The position numbers and the translations under genes are program-made. From sequence record NC_012223.2: DNA of 44,899 nt; one strand, given 5' to 3'. The notes beneath the pieces are model-generated. The model searched no databases. It was not told the DNA's origin and saw only the letters and a program-made list of their open reading frames with translations. Shown piece by piece: positions 22,362 through 35,561 of this stretch (position 1 is the first letter of the stretch; each line of letters opens with the position of its first letter). The DNA is from Escherichia phage SSL-2009a.

Positions 22362-23978
22362 ATGGCAGCGGGTACACTATCCGTAACGAATAACAGCAAG
22401 GCGGTTGTCGGGGTAGGCACGACGTTTACCGCGTTTAAAGCTGGCGACTTCTTAACGCTGGTGGTAGGACAAGTCCCCTACACCGTGGCAATCGCGTCCA
22501 TTGAAAGCGCAACCGCGCTCACGCTGGTGTTACCGTTCGACGGACCCACGGCCACCGGCCTTGCCTGGGATGGCGTTGCGCGCGATACCATGTCACTGGC
22601 GACGATGGGCGTAACAGTCCAGGCACAGAAAGCATTGCGCTTGATGATTGCGGATGAAAACAACTGGCGTGCAATCTTCGGCGACGCTGAAGAGATCACC
22701 GTTACGCTGCCCAACGGGCAAGTTATGCAGGGTATGTCATGGGGCTACCTGTCGCAATTGATGAAGCAGATCGACCCCGTTGAAATGCGCAACCTACAAC
22801 AACAAGCCGCCGCGTCTGAAGCAGCAGCGCAAGGATTTCGCAATGAGGCCGAAGGCTTCAAGAACGATGCCAATACCATCAAGACGCAGACCAACCAAAT
22901 CAAGGCCGATACGCAGGCGGTCCACGACGCCACCAACACCATCAAGACGCAGACGAATCAGATTAAGGCCGATACGCAAGCCATCAAGGACCAGACGAAC
23001 CAGATCAAGACGGATACCGGCATTATTCGGGACCAAGCCAATACGGCGAAGACTGACGCGCAAGCCGCCAGAGATGCCGCGAAAGGGTATCGGGATGAAG
23101 CCGAAGACTTCAAAAACGCGGTCAACCCTACGCAATTCATGAAGACGTCTCAGAACCTGGCAGACGTAGCAAATCAATCAGCGGCACGCTCTAATCTTGG
23201 TCTTGGGTCGGTAGCTACGGAGAACACCGTTCCGATCGAGAAAGGAGGAACCGCCGCGACAACGGCAGCGGCGGCACGCTCTAATTTCGGGTTGGGCGAA
23301 AACAATAACGTAAAACTTGGTACGTTGCGCCTAAACGGTGGTGAATCGCTAGTCTTCAATGATGTCGAAAGAAACGGCTTAGCACTATCAAACGTCTCAT
23401 ATGGGATAGATAGTTGGGTAGGCTTCACCATGCACAAATGGTACGCCGACTGGACCCGCGCAGGAATTGTGCGTGCGGGGGACACCCACCTGTCAGACTA
23501 CCGCGTCCACGTGTGGAAAGATGGTATGACTGAATCGCTATTCCGCTTCCTACCGGACGGCAGGCTTATTAGTGGTAACAGCGGCAACCCGTCGGTTAAC
23601 GAGTTCCAGAAAGCGGCGCTATCGGACCGCGACCTTAAAAAAGAAATCAAATACACGGACGGCGAGGAAAGCTACAACCGCGTTCGCCAGTGGCTTCCGG
23701 CGATGTTCAAGTATAAGGAGTCGGACGTACAGCGATACGGCCTTATCGCGCAGGATCTGGCAAGGATTGACCCGGAATACGTGCATTTGCTGCCGGGTTA
23801 CGCCATTTATGAGGACGTCAAGGGGGTCGACGAGGAAGGGAATGAGGTTGTAGTCGACCGCAAGGAGATCGGGTATACCGACGATGTGCTGTCTTTGGAT
23901 AGTAACGTGCTGTTGATGGACCTGTGTGCCGCCTTCGTCCACCTGTTGCATAAAGTGGAGAAGCTGGAAGGTAAATAA
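22362..23978 (+). CDS. tail fiber protein with internal 21-residue repeats and C-terminal chaperone-like domain
   Basis: 538 aa from ATG 22362 (SD GAGGA); tandem TIKTQTNQIKADTQA repeats; C-terminal region (DRDLKKEIKYTDGEESY...GLIAQDLARIDPEYV) resembles the intramolecular chaperone of S74-type fibers (by recollection). Confidence 0.7.
   Translation: MAAGTLSVTNNSKAVVGVGTTFTAFKAGDFLTLVVGQVPYTVAIASIESATALTLVLPFDGPTATGLAWDGVARDTMSLATMGVTVQAQKALRLMIADENNWRAIFGDAEEITVTLPNGQVMQGMSWGYLSQLMKQIDPVEMRNLQQQAAASEAAAQGFRNEAEGFKNDANTIKTQTNQIKADTQAVHDATNTIKTQTNQIKADTQAIKDQTNQIKTDTGIIRDQANTAKTDAQAARDAAKGYRDEAEDFKNAVNPTQFMKTSQNLADVANQSAARSNLGLGSVATENTVPIEKGGTAATTAAAARSNFGLGENNNVKLGTLRLNGGESLVFNDVERNGLALSNVSYGIDSWVGFTMHKWYADWTRAGIVRAGDTHLSDYRVHVWKDGMTESLFRFLPDGRLISGNSGNPSVNEFQKAALSDRDLKKEIKYTDGEESYNRVRQWLPAMFKYKESDVQRYGLIAQDLARIDPEYVHLLPGYAIYEDVKGVDEEGNEVVVDRKEIGYTDDVLSLDSNVLLMDLCAAFVHLLHKVEKLEGK
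22836..23120 (+). repeat. tandem 63-bp coding repeats within the tail fiber gene
   Basis: accatcaagacgcagac...aaggccgatacgca repeated at 22875 and 22938 with a third degenerate copy; flanked by repeated FKN(D/A) segments. Confidence 0.6.
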
Positions 23979-30508: not shown

Positions 30509-32800
30509 TTATTTCCTGTACCTATACATAATGTCGCCTTCCGCGGCAAGCGGGAATCCTTTCGCCCAAACCGGCAGGTCGCACATCAGCGCGCACAACT
30601 CCTCGGTTGTGTAGTCGTCGGTATCCGGCACTTCGGTTATCAGTTCATCGTGTACGGACAGTACGATCTCATACCCCGCAGCTTCAACGCCAGGCATGGA
30701 CCATGCGAGGATATCGCGGCACAGCGCCTGCACGATGTTTTCCGTCAGTTTGCCGCCGTAGGTGTACTGGAATCCCCACTGGCGCGTCGTCTGATTCTCA
30801 CCCTGATATTTAATGCGGGTGCTGGTGCGTTTCTTGCCGGTGTCTTCGTCGATCTCGGTCGTGACAGACAGCGCGATGCCGGGGTAGCTCATGATGCGCC
30901 CCGACGGTAACTCAATTTTCAACCACCACCCCGCGGCGTTCGGGTCGTCGCGTTCCTCGTCGAAGGTTGGGTCATGCTTCGCCTTCGTGCGGACTATCTT
31001 GAGCGCTTTCTTTCCATCCGGGCGAACGTTCGCGCCCGCCCAGTACGCTTTGCCCGGATTGCGGATCGCACAGAGCACCGCGTCTTCCAGTTCGGCCCAA
31101 AATGCTACCGTCTTCGGGTGCGACTCACGCCACATACGTTTGATTGCATCACACGTCAGCCATACGTTTTTCGGCAGTATGTAAGTCGGGCGCTCGTCCT
31201 TCTTGCCCGGCTTCGGCGGGCGCTTCGCTTCGTTAATGCGGGCGTATTCATAACCCCGTTTCGCCGCCGCCCATATGTGATCGGGGAATGTGCCCTTCAT
31301 CACTTCAGCCATCGCGTAAAGGTCGAGGCCCAGGTTTTTAGCGAACTGCAAGAACGCCGCCACGCCGCCACCATAGCCCAGGCCCAATTCGCACGCCTTA
31401 CCGATCTGGCGTAAGTCTTTGCGGTTGGCTTTAATGTATTCTGGGTCAAGGCCGAACATCTTACCGGCAGTTTCACAATAAATGTCGCGACCGGCCTTAA
31501 ACACCATTAGCGCTGTTTTCTCGCCAGCGATCCAGGCAAGTCCACGCCCTTCCACGTTGGAGTAGTCCGCTACGACAAACTTCTTACCCTTCGCCGGAAT
31601 AATGCACCCACGAACAGTCGAGGCCGTTAGCTTCGATATGTCATACGCCCAGTGCGCTGTCCCACGTAACAGGGAGTTGATGCCGTTGGTGAGCATGTGC
31701 GACCGCACCCAAAACGCGACGTCGCTCTCGCCCTCACGGCGCTTAATCTTCCCTTCGTGGTCGTCGCTATACTCGCCTCGCGCCAGGTTTTGCGGCTGGA
31801 AGCCTTTACCGGCCCAGCGTAGCGTGCGCTTTGCCCCACCATACTGAAGACAACCACGGCGGCGACCATCGGCGGACAGACCATTTACAAGCGGATTGTA
31901 CTTAGTCGATGCCGTTGATGACGCACCGAGGCGCATTTCGATAAGCACTTTGCCTTCGTCGGGGAAGTCTGGGTCTTCCAGCAGGTCGTTAAGCGTGGAT
32001 TTCTGCGCGTTGTGAATTGTGAACGCAGGCGCGAGGTCGCGCAGCGCTGGCAAGAAGTCATTGCCAGTCAGCTTACCGCCGAAGCGCTCCCAGGCTTCTT
32101 CCTTCAATTCTTCCTTATGCGCCTGTACCGCTTTGATCGCAGCGCGCGCCAGGTCAACGTCCACATAGAAGCCGCGGTCATTGATCAACTGGTCAATAAG
32201 CAGGATTTCGTCTTCCTTCGGCGTGTTACCCCAGTCCGGTATGCGCCAATAGACTTCCCTCATCGCTATAATATCCAGCGCGGCATAGCGCAGGAATTTA
32301 GCCCATTCTTCAGGGTGAGTCTCGCGAGTGTAGCGGCGGATTTTGTAAGTCTTAGGGGTGGGCTTACAGAATCGTTTAATCAGCGCCTTGCCTGCCTTAT
32401 CCTTCGCGTGCTCTGCGTCAACGCCCAGCACCTGGCATTGCATATCGAGGCTACCGGGCAGCGCGTGGCGAAAGGCCATAATCATGGTATCTTCGATCTG
32501 ACACACTGGCAGGTCAATGCCCCACTTCTCGCGAATAACCAGGCGGTCAAACAGGAGGCCGTTAGCCATCACTATTTTTGCTTTCTTGCGGGATACCCGG
32601 CGGAGCGCCTTGCGCAGTTCACGCGGCATTGTGGGGGACTCGGTGCAATCCCACGTTTGCACGCGGCCTTCGTCGATGGCGTATGTGCAAATCATAATCT
32701 CAGTAGTTGGGTGTTCCGCGTAGGCGTATGCGCCCACTTTCTTCAGATCCACCCCGCTAAATGTCTCGGTATCGAGAAACAGGCGTTCAAAGTCTTTCAT
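30509..32800 (-). CDS. DNA polymerase I-type (family A) with 3'-5' exonuclease domain
   Basis: 763 aa; N-terminal exo motif LFLDTETFSG; polymerase motif A VADYSNVEGRGLAW, motif B RQIGKACELGLGYGGG, motif C VHDELI. Confidence 0.9.
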   Translation of the reverse strand: MKDFERLFLDTETFSGVDLKKVGAYAYAEHPTTEIMICTYAIDEGRVQTWDCTESPTMPRELRKALRRVSRKKAKIVMANGLLFDRLVIREKWGIDLPVCQIEDTMIMAFRHALPGSLDMQCQVLGVDAEHAKDKAGKALIKRFCKPTPKTYKIRRYTRETHPEEWAKFLRYAALDIIAMREVYWRIPDWGNTPKEDEILLIDQLINDRGFYVDVDLARAAIKAVQAHKEELKEEAWERFGGKLTGNDFLPALRDLAPAFTIHNAQKSTLNDLLEDPDFPDEGKVLIEMRLGASSTASTKYNPLVNGLSADGRRRGCLQYGGAKRTLRWAGKGFQPQNLARGEYSDDHEGKIKRREGESDVAFWVRSHMLTNGINSLLRGTAHWAYDISKLTASTVRGCIIPAKGKKFVVADYSNVEGRGLAWIAGEKTALMVFKAGRDIYCETAGKMFGLDPEYIKANRKDLRQIGKACELGLGYGGGVAAFLQFAKNLGLDLYAMAEVMKGTFPDHIWAAAKRGYEYARINEAKRPPKPGKKDERPTYILPKNVWLTCDAIKRMWRESHPKTVAFWAELEDAVLCAIRNPGKAYWAGANVRPDGKKALKIVRTKAKHDPTFDEERDDPNAAGWWLKIELPSGRIMSYPGIALSVTTEIDEDTGKKRTSTRIKYQGENQTTRQWGFQYTYGGKLTENIVQALCRDILAWSMPGVEAAGYEIVLSVHDELITEVPDTDDYTTEELCALMCDLPVWAKGFPLAAEGDIMYRYRK

Positions 32801-32967: not shown

Positions 32968-32982
32968 TTTTCATTGTCCTAT

Positions 32983-33006
32983 TAAAAAGCCCGCATTAAG
33001 CGGGCT
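32983..33006 (-). terminator. intrinsic terminator on minus strand after SSB gene
   Basis: GCCCGC-loop-GCGGGC with UUUUU on the minus-strand transcript. Confidence 0.5.
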
Positions 33007-33025
33007 TGAATAGTGGGCTTTGCCC

Positions 33026-33805
33026 TTAACGGCGGCGACGTTTACGTGGCGCTTCGTCTTCGTCGTCGTCCTCATCTTCGTCATCGCGTGGCTTACGACG
33101 TTTACGAGGTTTTTCATCTTCGTCGTCTTCGTCATCGCGGCGCTTGGACTTTTTGGACTTGCGCGGCTTGTCGTCTTCGTCATCGTCATCACGACGTTTT
33201 GACTTTTTGGACTTGCGCGGGCTTTCATCTTCGTCATCGTTGTCCAGGTCTTCGTCTGAGCACGAAGATCCGCCACCGCCGAAGGCTTCGCCGTCATCAC
33301 GGAAGCGCAGACCCAAAAGACCAGCACCGAGTCCCTTGCCGTTGGTATTGTTCCACGCCCAGATATCGAGGGACACGTTGCAATAACAACCGGAGTAGAT
33401 CTCCTGGCCTTCGATCTCGTCGCCTTCTACGGTCAGACCTTGTTCAGTCTGCTTCTCGCCGAGTGACGTTTGAATGATCGGCTGCTTGAACGATTTGGCG
33501 TTGATGTACAACATGCCTTCGAATTCTTCGGTTACTTCGTCGCGCTCGTCACCGTCGCGAACTGCGCATTCCTTAGAATCCTGGGCGTAGTGGCGGTCCA
33601 TCCACTTATCGGCATTCTTCTCGGATTTCAGCTTGTCGGTGAGCACTGCGCGCGCTGCCGCTTCCACTTTGTCCACCTGCGGATCTTCTTTATCCAGAAG
33701 AATCACGGCACGGTATGCCGGTTTTTGTCCATCCTGTTTAGGGGTATCACGTTCCCAAATTTTCAGGAAACATACGCGCACTTTTTTCAGGTTGACTTTA
33801 GCCAT
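33026..33805 (-). CDS. single-stranded DNA-binding protein candidate (T7 gp2.5-like) with repetitive mixed-charge C-terminal tail
   Basis: 259 aa from ATG 33805 (SD AGGAA); N-terminus MAKVNLKKVRVCF resembles gp2.5-like SSBs (by recollection); C-terminal 70 residues are tandem D/E-rich and KPRKSKKSKRR-type repeats. Confidence 0.5.
   Translation of the reverse strand: MAKVNLKKVRVCFLKIWERDTPKQDGQKPAYRAVILLDKEDPQVDKVEAAARAVLTDKLKSEKNADKWMDRHYAQDSKECAVRDGDERDEVTEEFEGMLYINAKSFKQPIIQTSLGEKQTEQGLTVEGDEIEGQEIYSGCYCNVSLDIWAWNNTNGKGLGAGLLGLRFRDDGEAFGGGGSSCSDEDLDNDDEDESPRKSKKSKRRDDDDEDDKPRKSKKSKRRDDEDDEDEKPRKRRKPRDDEDEDDDEDEAPRKRRRR
33030..33245 (-). repeat. tandem coding repeats (about 55-bp period) in the SSB C-terminal tail
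   Basis: ttggactttttggacttgcgcgg repeated at 33144-33166 and 33198-33220 with flanking gtc/ttc triplet runs. Confidence 0.55.
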
Positions 33806-33861
33806 TTTCCAATTCCTCATTTTCACATGTATCGGGGTTATTGTGAGCCACCCCGTTCGGC

Positions 33862-33886
33862 TTGGTTGCCAATCTACTTGGTTGCG
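33862..33886 (+). promoter_or_regulatory. two direct TTGGTTGC half-sites (plus-strand orientation) between minus-strand genes
   Basis: cttggttgcc (33861-33870) and cttggttgcg (33877-33886), spaced 16 bp; orientation opposite to the flanking genes. Confidence 0.35.
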
Positions 33887-33895
33887 CCTAAGCGG

Positions 33896-34138
33896 TCAAG
33901 CACTTTCATTAAAAAGATTTCTGGTCACGTAGTTGGTGGCGTTCTCAATCCAGCTTAACGGCGGTCGGTCGATGTTCTTCTCCACCCAGTGGACGGCAGC
34001 GTCACTATATCCGTCATCAAGCCAGCGGGTCGGATGGCGAATCATCCACGCCACCATTAACACGCCTTGCACGCAATGCAGGATAAAGCCCAGCGCGCCG
34101 AGTAAAAACATCAATAAGATTGCAAATACTTTATTCAT
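33896..34138 (-). CDS. small membrane protein (two predicted TM helices)
   Basis: 80 aa, SD GAGGA; hydrophobic segments FAILLMFLLGALGFIL and VLMVAWMI. Confidence 0.45.
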   Translation of the reverse strand: MNKVFAILLMFLLGALGFILHCVQGVLMVAWMIRHPTRWLDDGYSDAAVHWVEKNIDRPPLSWIENATNYVTRNLFNESA

Positions 34139-35561
34139 TGCCTAAGTCCTCGTCAGTGGCCTCCGACCACGCAGGGCGCGGGTCGTCGATTGGTGCTAAC
34201 ACCGGTTTAGCGGGTGCGCGTGTGATTTTAGCACACAGCTTCGCCCACACTTTCGGTTTTTCGTCCTTCAGTACCTTCTCGGCATCTGTCGGGCTGAGCA
34301 ATGTTTCTTTGTACATCACATCGCGCTTGATCCGGGCCTTCGTGAAGATTTCAATCACTTCGCTCTCGTCCGCCCACTTACGGATCCCTTCCTTACCGGC
34401 AACCATCTTGAGGCCCAGCGATTCGCCATCGCCCGCCATGACCGCCTTGAATACCGCGGACTCGATAGCCTTGATGTGCTGGCGCATTGCGTCCAGGCCT
34501 TCATAAGCCTTGCGCAGTTCCGCAGCGCTCATAGCGCCTGGTGTGGATTCCTTCTTGCCTCGTTTAGCACGTCGTGCCGCCTTCCGGGCTTCGCGGGCCA
34601 TATTGCGATCGTGGTTGGCGCATTCTTCCTCGGTCGCCTCGCTCACGTCGTCGCCCAGGTCTTCGTCGGTTGCCGTTGGTGGTGTCATAGTGTCGATTGC
34701 GGCCTTCGCCCGGACGCTGCACTGGTCCGCAAATCTGCACCACTGGCACGCATCGACGCTGGGCCGGAAGTCCGCGCGGGTTAGTCCCTTCTTGCCGCGG
34801 GCGTATGCATCGAGCGCGGCGATAGCACGCTTGGACGCAAACTTCGCGAATATCTCCAGGGCTTCTACCGAAATATCCCATTCCGACGCCCCACCGCAAT
34901 ACGGCTGGAAGATAACCAGGCGCACGGACGTAATGTCGTACATGGTTTGCAGCTTGCGCAGCAGGCCGAGCGCGTACAACATAAGCTGTTTGTTTTCTTT
35001 CGCCTCGACCTTATGCCGCCCGGTCTTCAGGTCGCCAACAATCAGCATGTACGTTCCGTCGGTCTTTTTCATGACCATGACCATATCGGCAGTACCGAAC
35101 GTTTTAATCCTGTCGCCGTCGATCTCGAAGCCTGAGTGAAGGACGCGGGTAAGATCGGCGCGCATCTCAAGCTGGACAAACTCCGCCACTTCAAGGAGCG
35201 GACGCCAGTGGTCGATGTATGCATCGCACTGCTTCACCATGTCGTCGTTGACCAGTACGCCGCCTTTCGGTGCTTTCGGGTGGGCCTTTACTGGCCCCTT
35301 GCCTTCGTTCTCGACGTAGCACCCTTTATACGTCTTAGCGGTTATTTTCTTCTCACCGGCGATAATGCGGTTTAGTACCACCTCAGATACGGTGTGCATA
35401 CTCGTACCGTTAATCGCGGCTTGCCCGGATTCGTTCGGGATATCTTTTTCTACCACCAGGGCGGCGGGACACCCCATCCATTTTTTAGCACCGGATGGGC
35501 CAAGTAATGAGTGTTCCGTATTACTACCTGATTGCGTTTTACGTTTTGGTTTAATCGCCAT
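34131..35561 (-). CDS. Cas4-like / RecB-family PD-(D/E)xK exonuclease
   Basis: 476 aa; N-terminal Cys (WMGCPAA), nuclease core GDLKTGRHKVEAK with QLMLYAL (QxxxY), C-terminal Cys triad CQWCRFADQC consistent with a Cas4-type Fe-S cluster. Confidence 0.65.
   Translation of the reverse strand: MAIKPKRKTQSGSNTEHSLLGPSGAKKWMGCPAALVVEKDIPNESGQAAINGTSMHTVSEVVLNRIIAGEKKITAKTYKGCYVENEGKGPVKAHPKAPKGGVLVNDDMVKQCDAYIDHWRPLLEVAEFVQLEMRADLTRVLHSGFEIDGDRIKTFGTADMVMVMKKTDGTYMLIVGDLKTGRHKVEAKENKQLMLYALGLLRKLQTMYDITSVRLVIFQPYCGGASEWDISVEALEIFAKFASKRAIAALDAYARGKKGLTRADFRPSVDACQWCRFADQCSVRAKAAIDTMTPPTATDEDLGDDVSEATEEECANHDRNMAREARKAARRAKRGKKESTPGAMSAAELRKAYEGLDAMRQHIKAIESAVFKAVMAGDGESLGLKMVAGKEGIRKWADESEVIEIFTKARIKRDVMYKETLLSPTDAEKVLKDEKPKVWAKLCAKITRAPAKPVLAPIDDPRPAWSEATDEDLGNE

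Follow-up and report, generated by a model that had tools for sequence, protein, structure and literature searches.

We report here that the binding protein for single-stranded DNA (ssDNA), or SSB, of Escherichia phage SSL-2009a (sequence record NC_012223.2; 44,899 nucleotides (nt), one strand read 5' to 3', this whole stretch being the window) carries a C-terminal tail of alternating acidic and basic blocks that ends in a basic cap, and that the number of these blocks varies among closely related phages of the genus Dhillonvirus. The gene itself is ordinary, and the points of note are the design of its tail, the natural allelic series, the recurrence of the design on a second SSB fold, and a motif possibly shared with the neighbouring nuclease. 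We tentatively read the tail as a docking motif joined to a tunable extension for electrostatic self-association and DNA contact; the functional steps of this reading are ones that we infer, and we put its chance of being right at somewhat below even.

The SSB and its block-charged tail

The protein had been called a gp2.5-like SSB in a preliminary description made from the nucleotide sequence, and family, fold and structure searches bear this name out. Pfam PF10991 (Enc34_ssDNA-bd, formerly DUF2815) matches residues 10-200 with a score of 108.9 bits (E 3e-31), the gathering cut-off being 26, PHROG 112 ('Gp2.5-like ssDNA binding protein and ssDNA annealing protein') matches with E 1.7e-56, and the sequence matches in the PDB are 4KLK, 4JG2 and the Enc34 SSB entries 5ODJ and 5ODK. 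An AlphaFold2 model built with 57 homologues has a predicted local distance difference test score (pLDDT) of 93-98 for residues 9-180, and Foldseek searches with this model retrieved 4KLK (2e-12), the Enc34 SSB-ssDNA complex 5ODL (6e-12) and T7 gp2.5 (1JE5, 6.5e-7), all at probability 1.00. The N-terminal domain, which the preliminary description had allowed might turn out not to be an OB fold, is one according to both AlphaFold2 and Foldseek.

Four of the six ssDNA-contact residues of Enc34 ORF6 are kept, including the 5' stacking aromatic: Trp150, Asn154, Arg112 and Tyr30 align to W149, N153, K104 and F13 of the SSB, and the Trp150 column is aromatic in 36 of 36 aligned sequences. The remaining two contacts, Tyr156 and Tyr37, are not conserved in the SSB, as is the case in much of the PF10991 family. 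The E. coli-type SSB family PF00436 gave no match in the protein, PF10991 being the only family reported at E <= 0.01. Indirectly, the identity as an SSB is also backed by near-identical orthologues in SECphi4 and SECphi18, which on genetic evidence act as the SSB sensed by Retron-Eco8. The assignment to PF10991 as a T7-type (gp2.5/Enc34-like) OB-fold SSB is sound, and it is under this OB-domain family, not under the classical acidic-tail architecture, that the protein is filed.

The last 77 residues of the SSB (nt 33029..33259) consist of four acidic and four basic blocks in alternation, beginning with SDEDLDNDDEDE and running to the stop codon in the order given here:

33026..33805, minus strand: SSB gene, 259 amino acids (aa) including the tail, with its stop codon at 33026..33028 and its ATG at 33805
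33260..33805, minus strand: Enc34/gp2.5-type OB-fold ssDNA-binding domain and FGGGGSSC linker (PF10991, AlphaFold2, Foldseek)
33224..33259, minus strand: proximal acidic motif SDEDLDNDDEDE, at the position of the family's acidic-hydrophobic motif, kept in all tail-length variants
33191..33223, minus strand: basic block 1, SPRKSKKSKRR (type A unit), partly inside the 54-bp tandem repeat
33170..33190, minus strand: acidic block 2, DDDDEDD
33137..33169, minus strand: basic block 2, KPRKSKKSKRR (type A unit), near-identical in DNA to block 1
33113..33136, minus strand: acidic block 3, DDEDDEDE, varying in length by whole codons among relatives
33086..33112, minus strand: basic block 3, KPRKRRKPR (type B unit)
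33053..33085, minus strand: acidic block 4, DDEDEDDDEDE
33029..33052, minus strand: C-terminal basic cap, APRKRRRR, present in all in-frame variants, that of the one-block phage welsh among them
33123..33240, no strand given: 54-bp tandem DNA repeat encoding the type A units, from Tandem Repeats Finder and unit alignment

With 28 K/R against 35 D/E, the tail has a charged fraction of 0.82 and a net charge per residue of -0.09. Its C-terminus reads RKRRRR with no acidic-hydrophobic tip, and only the first 12 tail residues conform to a classical acidic tail with an acidic or acidic-hydrophobic tip. The charges are strongly segregated: kappa is 0.53, compared with 0.10 +/- 0.04 in 5000 shuffles, none of which reached the observed value (z = 10), and there are 8 runs of like charge where ~32 would be expected. 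From the GGGG linker onward the AlphaFold2 pLDDT falls to 48-60, and the tail is predicted to be disordered. At the DNA level, Tandem Repeats Finder reports a 54-bp period in 2.2 copies with 87% matches (33123..33240); repeat units 1 and 2 are near-identical, and unit 3 together with the terminal cap forms a more diverged subtype. The preliminary description had given about 70 residues encoded by repeats of about 55 bp, and its account of repeating acidic and basic blocks stands with the length corrected to 77 aa and the period to 54 bp.

Tail variation within Dhillonvirus and across the family

At 80-97% DNA identity, 153 GenBank phage records match the SSB locus. With few exceptions they are Dhillonvirus siphoviruses that infect E. 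coli or Shigella, the tail is present in every one of the records, and a tail of this type was read in 18 distinct full-length sequences. Because these records are independent of one another, the tail is not the sequencing or assembly artefact that had been raised as a possibility in the preliminary description. Judged from the span of the region in 58 genomes sampled across the ranked matches, 47 have four basic blocks, 10 have three and a single genome has one. Among the 18 distinct full-length genes there are in-frame alleles with 4, 3, 2 and 1 basic blocks. The tail is thus a copy-number-variable in-frame tandem repeat (54 bp x 2.2) in which close relatives differ in unit number, as the preliminary description had suspected when it suggested that the tail may be prone to repeat-number variation.

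At least six different in-frame deletion alleles of the tail were found. A type A unit (basic block 2) is lost in EK99P-1, Envy and L008, a type B unit (basic block 3) is lost in JL1 and TheodorHerzl, L007 has an A/B hybrid unit, SECphi4 has unit 3 fused with the cap, L009 has a two-block tail, and the tail of phage welsh is SDEDLDNDDEDE-APRKRRRR only. The proximal acidic motif and the basic cap are kept in all of the in-frame deletion alleles, the motif being present in 18 of 18 Dhillonvirus variants, and the acidic runs additionally differ by single codons among relatives. Across aligned tail codons the ratio of non-synonymous to synonymous divergence (pN/pS) is 0.125 at a pS of 0.35, with 0.068 in the OB domain, and these aligned codons are under purifying selection. 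The net charge of the tail lies between -3 and -11 in 18 of 18 variants, irrespective of length. Purifying selection on the codons, together with a net charge that keeps within these limits at every length, shows that it is as protein that the feature is selected, while the number of its units is free to vary. Separately, the IMG/VR contig L012 (2100..2173) ends within the tail with the sequence AVSYTHLRAHET, which matches no other tail and may be adapter-derived.

A full-length word-indexed homology search returned mixed tails in 86 of its 94 matches. Since such a search favours proteins that share tail words, it was not used for frequencies, and searches with the OB domain alone were made. 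Of the 97 new proteins that an OB-domain-only profile retrieved, 74 have acid-only tails, and in 21 the tail is an acid-basic-acid sandwich with ...DDDDLL or ...DDDDLI at its end. When the OB domain was compared exhaustively by phmmer with 1.84 billion cluster representatives, 1873 matches came back, and the best 150 of these were classified as 127 acid-only tails, 16 mixed tails, 6 others and one truncated protein, which puts acid-only tails at 127 of 149 representatives (85%) and mixed tails at ~11% among these best matches. The four nearest clusters (>= 40% identity) are all mixed-tailed, and farther out mixed tails are sporadic. The earlier statement that classical tails are purely acidic and that this one is unusual therefore holds against Enc34 ORF6, T7 gp2.5 and the 127 of 149 representatives, with the qualification that in the protein's own clade the mixed tail is the norm. 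Because it is the norm in the Dhillonvirus clade and makes up ~11-22% of the family samples, we regard the mixed tail as a minority design and not as a one-off.

Most tails in the family open with a (D/E)(D/E)(F/L)xD(L/V/I)-type motif at the place where SDEDLDNDDEDE sits in the SSB, and among the distant PF10991 relatives some mixed tails finish with ...DDEIPF or DDDDF. The basic blocks follow a recognizable grammar. Among 432 of them, with a median length of 10 aa, Pro falls within the first three residues in 68% (at position 2 in 272 blocks) compared with 3% elsewhere in the blocks, and the final residue is Arg in 305; the x-Pro-Arg junction and the Arg-Asp exit are kept across homologues down to ~30% identity. 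Similar caps (xPRRRRR, TPRRERRRNR) are found in relatives down to ~40% identity, with the Jerseyvirus SETP13 and the unclassified phage LotteLoewe having the minimal mixed tail SVDDLEDDEDE-TPRRERRRNR, and other, distant relatives have tails of up to nine blocks. A search with the 77-aa tail alone gave no matches, none of its 1540 word-sharing candidates having scored, presumably as a result of the HMMER composition correction. A protein labelled as Hevea brasiliensis (P0085) was seen to combine a DUF2800 Pfam match with a phage SSB tail, and is presumably phage contamination or a chimera in the plant assembly.

The same design is present on a different SSB fold. Two gp32-like SSBs, P0094 (L026, 8001..9326) and P0097 (L025, 7373..8644), which surfaced as weak tail-only matches of the full-length homology search, have long tails of acidic and x-Pro-Arg-basic blocks; P0097 matches Pfam PF08804, and both match phrog_1192. 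The tail of P0097 opens with ETDEDLDGDDEDSSKKSKKSRRRDDDDDD (first residues ETDEDLDGDDEDSSKKSKKSRRR), which is almost the opening of the Dhillonvirus SSB tail. Both are encoded in other kinds of replication module, where the neighbours include a UDG-PolA fusion, a clamp-loader-like ATPase and a RecA-like protein but no DUF2800 nuclease. Since gp32-like SSBs in these other modules carry the same grammar, the tail type is bound neither to a single fold nor to a single gene neighbourhood. We found no description in the paper library searched of mixed-charge, polyampholyte, charge-patterned or block-repeat phage SSB tails; the tail sequences of SECphi4 and SECphi18 sit uncommented in a supplementary table of one preprint (bioRxiv 10.1101/2022.08.27.505566).

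The neighbouring nuclease and other features of the locus

The SSB gene stands in a duf2800 nuclease - SSB - polA gene order (PF10926 with PDDEXK; PF00476). This duf2800-gp2.5-polA module has already been described (PMC8093625), and its nuclease was recently reported as a retron trigger. The features around the SSB gene are as follows:

34131..35561, minus strand: DUF2800 / PD-(D/E)XK nuclease, upstream of the SSB (PF10926, E 2e-65)
34536..34679, minus strand: nuclease internal insert PTATDEDLGDD..., which echoes the SSB acidic motif and is followed by the basic stretch AREARKAARRAKRGKK
34134..34160, minus strand: nuclease C-terminus ATDEDLGNE-stop, which echoes the SSB acidic motif at 33224..33259
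33871..33899, minus strand: sigma-70-like promoter candidate TTGACC-17-TAGATT, upstream of the SSB gene, a weak consensus match
32971..33327, minus strand: open reading frame (ORF) of 118 aa in an alternative frame through the tail
32979..33013, minus strand: intrinsic-terminator hairpin directly after the SSB stop codon
32797..32967, minus strand: 56-aa gene (phrog_10102), between SSB and polymerase
30509..32800, minus strand: family A DNA polymerase (PF00476), downstream of the SSB, a candidate partner of the acidic motif

The pattern [ST]DEDL[GD][DN][DE] occurs three times among all six-frame ORFs of >= 50 aa in the 44,899-nt genome, once at the start of the SSB tail and twice in the nuclease. 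In seven further phages the nuclease C-terminus resembles the tail of that phage's own SSB, which makes eight phages in all, with three motif classes:

Smarc3: nuclease C-terminus SDEDLA-stop, SSB tail TDDDLDG
VSiP: nuclease C-terminus TDSDLDD-stop, SSB tail TDDDLDD
SETP13: nuclease C-terminus TEDDLEA-stop, SSB tail VDDLEDD
LotteLoewe: nuclease C-terminus TEEDLE-stop, SSB tail VNDLEDD
BPP-1: nuclease C-terminus DDFADV..EDLV-stop, SSB tail DEFDDI..ADLV-stop
APSE-2: nuclease C-terminus DFDDV.., SSB tail EFDDL..
Enc34: nuclease C-terminus AYDDEDEDDDEV-stop, SSB tail AYDEDEDEWDEDEV-stop

We take this resemblance between sequences as a lead that the acidic motif shared by nuclease and SSB may be a docking motif.

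In a mechanical ORF listing the SSB frame runs from 33026 to 33826 on the minus strand, with a GTG start at 33826 and 266 aa. The ATG at 33805 has a Shine-Dalgarno sequence (GAGGAA at 33813..33818, 7-nt spacer), and the annotations of orthologues (GenBank; SECphi4/SECphi18) begin at the matching MAKVNL; on these grounds ATG 33805 and not GTG 33826 is most likely the true start, giving a protein of 259 aa. The hairpin behind the stop codon was missed by a terminator scan and confirmed by RNA folding (-24.6 kcal/mol, z = -4.8), a terminator is annotated in three related GenBank records under the match spanning this region, and the ribosome-binding site of the 56-aa gene comes next. The sigma-70 scan found one site in the region, compared with 1.0 on average in shuffles. 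The alternative-frame ORF at 32971..33327 was considered as a hidden gene or the product of a programmed frameshift and rejected as a by-product of stop-free GA-rich codons; its product occurs as a protein only in three database entries, with differing frameshift points.

Two further observations concern other parts of the genome. The 56-aa gene and the intergenic stretch 32968..33025 are mutated in SECphi4/SECphi18 defence escapers according to Table S2 of bioRxiv 10.1101/2022.08.27.505566, where these escapers are listed beside Borvo-escaping DNA-polymerase mutants, the order of the rows suggesting that they too belong to Borvo. In another gene of the phage lies a tandem repeat with a 63-bp period (22870..23012; 2.3 copies at 78% matches), overlapped by a periodicity of 21 bp.

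Possible roles of the tail and comparison with known SSBs

In the reading that we prefer, the protein is the replication and recombination SSB of the Dhillonvirus duf2800 nuclease - SSB - polA module, and its tail, predicted to be disordered, would have three parts. The motif SDEDLDNDDEDE would be the counterpart of the canonical acidic SSB tail and would probably dock a partner common to SSB and nuclease, which is probable because similar motifs end the neighbouring nuclease; the DNA polymerase or the SSB's own DNA-binding groove would be the obvious candidates. Between this motif and the invariant basic cap APRKRRRR would lie zero to three internal units, each of a basic stretch of ~10 aa and an acidic stretch of ~8 aa, gained or lost via recombination or slippage between the DNA repeats. 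The extension turns the tail into a nearly charge-balanced, strongly blocky polyampholyte. SSB-coated ssDNA would hold many tails at high local concentration, where basic blocks could pair with the acidic blocks of neighbours and with the DNA backbone, and such multivalent electrostatic pairing could tune cooperative coating, self-association or condensation, and strand annealing; the extension may also partly hide the acidic docking motif before ssDNA binding. A bolder version, which we find rather doubtful, holds that the mixed tail is a portable, SSB-specific disordered module, acquired independently by or transferred between at least two unrelated folds (gp2.5/Enc34-like and gp32-like). 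It would drive electrostatic self-association of ssDNA-bound SSB into cooperative coats or condensate-like replication foci with a valency set by the mutable repeat number, and would gate an acidic docking motif held in common with the DUF2800 nuclease, both proteins competing for one partner or handing it over.

In favour of the reading as docking motif and extension we count the identity of the protein, the predicted disorder and more-than-chance blockiness of the tail, the purifying selection and bounded net charge, a unit number that changes while motif and cap are kept, the block grammar of distant homologues, the recurrence on the gp32-like fold, the resemblance to the nuclease, and precedents in T7 gp2.5, Enc34 and, as the best of them, the LAST motif of T4 gp32. 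Several observations weigh against it. Phage welsh, isolated on E. coli K-12, is viable with no internal unit, so the repeats are dispensable for plaque formation. Three database sequences (vB_EcoS-101114B2, which is L022; vB_EcoS-22664B1, which is P0005; and P0008) have frameshifted, Thr/Lys/Met-rich tails that read past the normal stop codon, in vB_EcoS-101114B2 through an out-of-frame deletion of ~49 nt between GATGACGA repeats; these alleles represent either real tail replacement or assembly errors in the repeat, and if they are real the whole tail can be replaced. The covariation of nuclease and SSB motifs in the eight phages, scored as the best ungapped 8-mer BLOSUM score over all 40,320 permutations, is marginal (p ~0.04) and confounded by acidic composition, and the phage's own SSB ranked first for just three of eight nucleases because long acidic tails match everything. 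The motif was not found at the C-termini of the other proteins in the two gp32-like loci. Lastly, SECphi4/SECphi18 orthologues of the SSB have been implicated genetically as the trigger of Retron-Eco8 (Stokar-Avihail et al., bioRxiv 10.1101/2022.08.27.505566), and the escape mutations listed for these phages in the parts of that preprint available to us are T56P, in the OB domain, or upstream, one SECphi4 escaper mapping to the intergenic region upstream of the SSB gene, with none in the tail; T7 SSB without its tail still activates Retron-Eco8.

Among the other explanations, the basic blocks might be auxiliary nucleic-acid-binding arms whose contact with the backbone raises affinity or neutralises charge for faster annealing, with the acidic blocks serving only to solubilise the arm and to auto-inhibit it off DNA, so that tails would meet DNA and not one another. 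PHROG 112 annotates the family as binding and annealing ssDNA, the SSB adjoins a resection-type nuclease in the manner of exonuclease/annealase pairs, and the K/R/S-rich blocks look like the internal LAST sequence with which gp32 contacts ssDNA (PMC12893549). Additionally, the tail of the Enc34 SSB confers discrimination between ssDNA and double-stranded DNA (dsDNA), and its removal unmasks dsDNA binding, which shows that tail charge controls DNA selectivity in this family (PMC5686142). We nevertheless consider binding arms unlikely, since the net charge of the tail is always negative (-3 to -11) and unfavourable to DNA binding, and phages with anything from 1 to 4 blocks, all of them viable, should on this view show very different affinities. 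The extension might instead be a near-neutral low-complexity expansion, a tolerated spacer produced by slippage or unequal recombination of GA-rich repeats, with selection purging only those variants that upset charge or frame. Such an expansion would fit the free variation of copy number among members of the genus that share 90-97% DNA identity, the viability of a phage with one block, the single-codon changes in acidic runs and the possible frameshifted alleles. It is nevertheless quite improbable in view of the purifying selection on aligned codons despite high synonymous divergence, the retention of the x-Pro-Arg and Arg-Asp grammar down to ~30% identity with up to nine blocks in distant relatives, the same design on a different SSB fold, and the presence of cap and proximal motif in every in-frame allele.

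Tail diversity might also reflect an arms race, in which changes of length and charge evade or decoy host defence systems or proteins that recognise phage SSBs. The Dhillonvirus SSB triggers Retron-Eco8 and several other defence systems respond to phage SSBs, but the same escape mutations and the activity of tail-less T7 SSB count against this idea, which also leaves the conserved block grammar unexplained, and we hold it to be very unlikely. We give least credit to the ideas that the repeat acts as a DNA-level element, such as iterons, origin or regulatory site, within the 3' end of the gene, or that it arose as an assembly artefact. A direct 54-bp repeat does lie beside a terminator and an intergenic region, but matches to the locus come from 153 independent genomes, the amino-acid pattern persists although synonymous positions have diverged freely (pS 0.35), the protein pattern of distant homologues is encoded by unrelated DNA, and one viable phage lacks the repeat entirely; these explanations are largely refuted and their chance is close to negligible.

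SSB tails are a hub through which replication, recombination and, according to recent work, anti-phage defence read the state of ssDNA, and every mechanistic model has been built on tails that are purely acidic. One common group of E. coli phages, SECphi4, SECphi18 and several isolates of the BASEL collection among them, uses another design, with a charge-balanced block copolymer and then a basic terminus placed after the acidic motif. The natural series of alleles with 1-4 blocks in otherwise near-identical genomes is a ready-made experiment on charge patterning of a disordered tail and on how this sets the cooperativity of the SSB, its annealing and condensation, and its recruitment of partners. 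The likeness of the SSB and DUF2800 nuclease motifs suggests a docking code that could be tested in the duf2800-gp2.5-polA module, which is widespread.

The E. coli-type SSBs (PF00436) have an OB domain and, after it, a disordered C-terminal stretch that governs both cooperativity and the binding of partners and ends in a DDDIPF tip. Their linker is rich in Gly, Pro and Gln, whereas that of the Dhillonvirus SSB is a charged block copolymer. In T4 gp32, the LAST motif (Lys-Arg-Lys-Ser-Thr) of the flexible N-domain contacts the acidic region of a neighbouring molecule and gives cooperativity (PMC12893549). It is a short K/R/S-rich motif on a flexible arm, and a compositional likeness between RKSKKSKRR and KRKST is visible in the sequences. 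However, gp32 has another fold, a single N-terminal motif and a purely acidic C-domain, whereas the Dhillonvirus blocks are C-terminal and repeated, and we treat the resemblance as a functional analogy only.

The closest characterized relative is the Enc34 ORF6 SSB of an Enterobacter/Hafnia phage (PDB 5ODJ, 5ODK, 5ODL), which shares the Pfam family and the fold at ~21% identity, the nuclease-SSB-polymerase gene order, and a disordered tail that starts with an acidic motif mirrored at the nuclease C-terminus. Its tail is purely acidic (16 of the last 29 residues are D or E) and ends in ...WDEDEV (PMC5686142), whereas the Dhillonvirus SSB adds four basic blocks and ends in RKRRRR. T7 gp2.5 (1JE5) belongs to the same T7-type OB-fold class at 10-14% identity and is likewise a replication SSB with a disordered tail, one that regulates DNA binding, dimerisation and partner recruitment. 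This tail stabilises dimers in trans and regulates binding (PMC10359462), and it contacts the polymerase and the helicase. In contrast to the Dhillonvirus tail, it is acidic, with an essential ...DGDF tip and without repeats or a basic terminus. We note that two acidic stretches of this tail flank a very small basic island, AKASKPR, whose Lys-Pro-Arg junction is the one seen in the Dhillonvirus blocks, and this arrangement may be a rudimentary acid-basic-acid sandwich. The SSBs of SECphi4 and SECphi18 are the same protein as that of SSL-2009a (~98% identity over the OB domain for SECphi18), with tails of 3 and 4 blocks. The study of these phages modelled the SSB as gp2.5-like over residues 1-186, the flexible C-terminal residues lying outside the structural figure. 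The block architecture of this tail and its variation in copy number are new in the present analysis.

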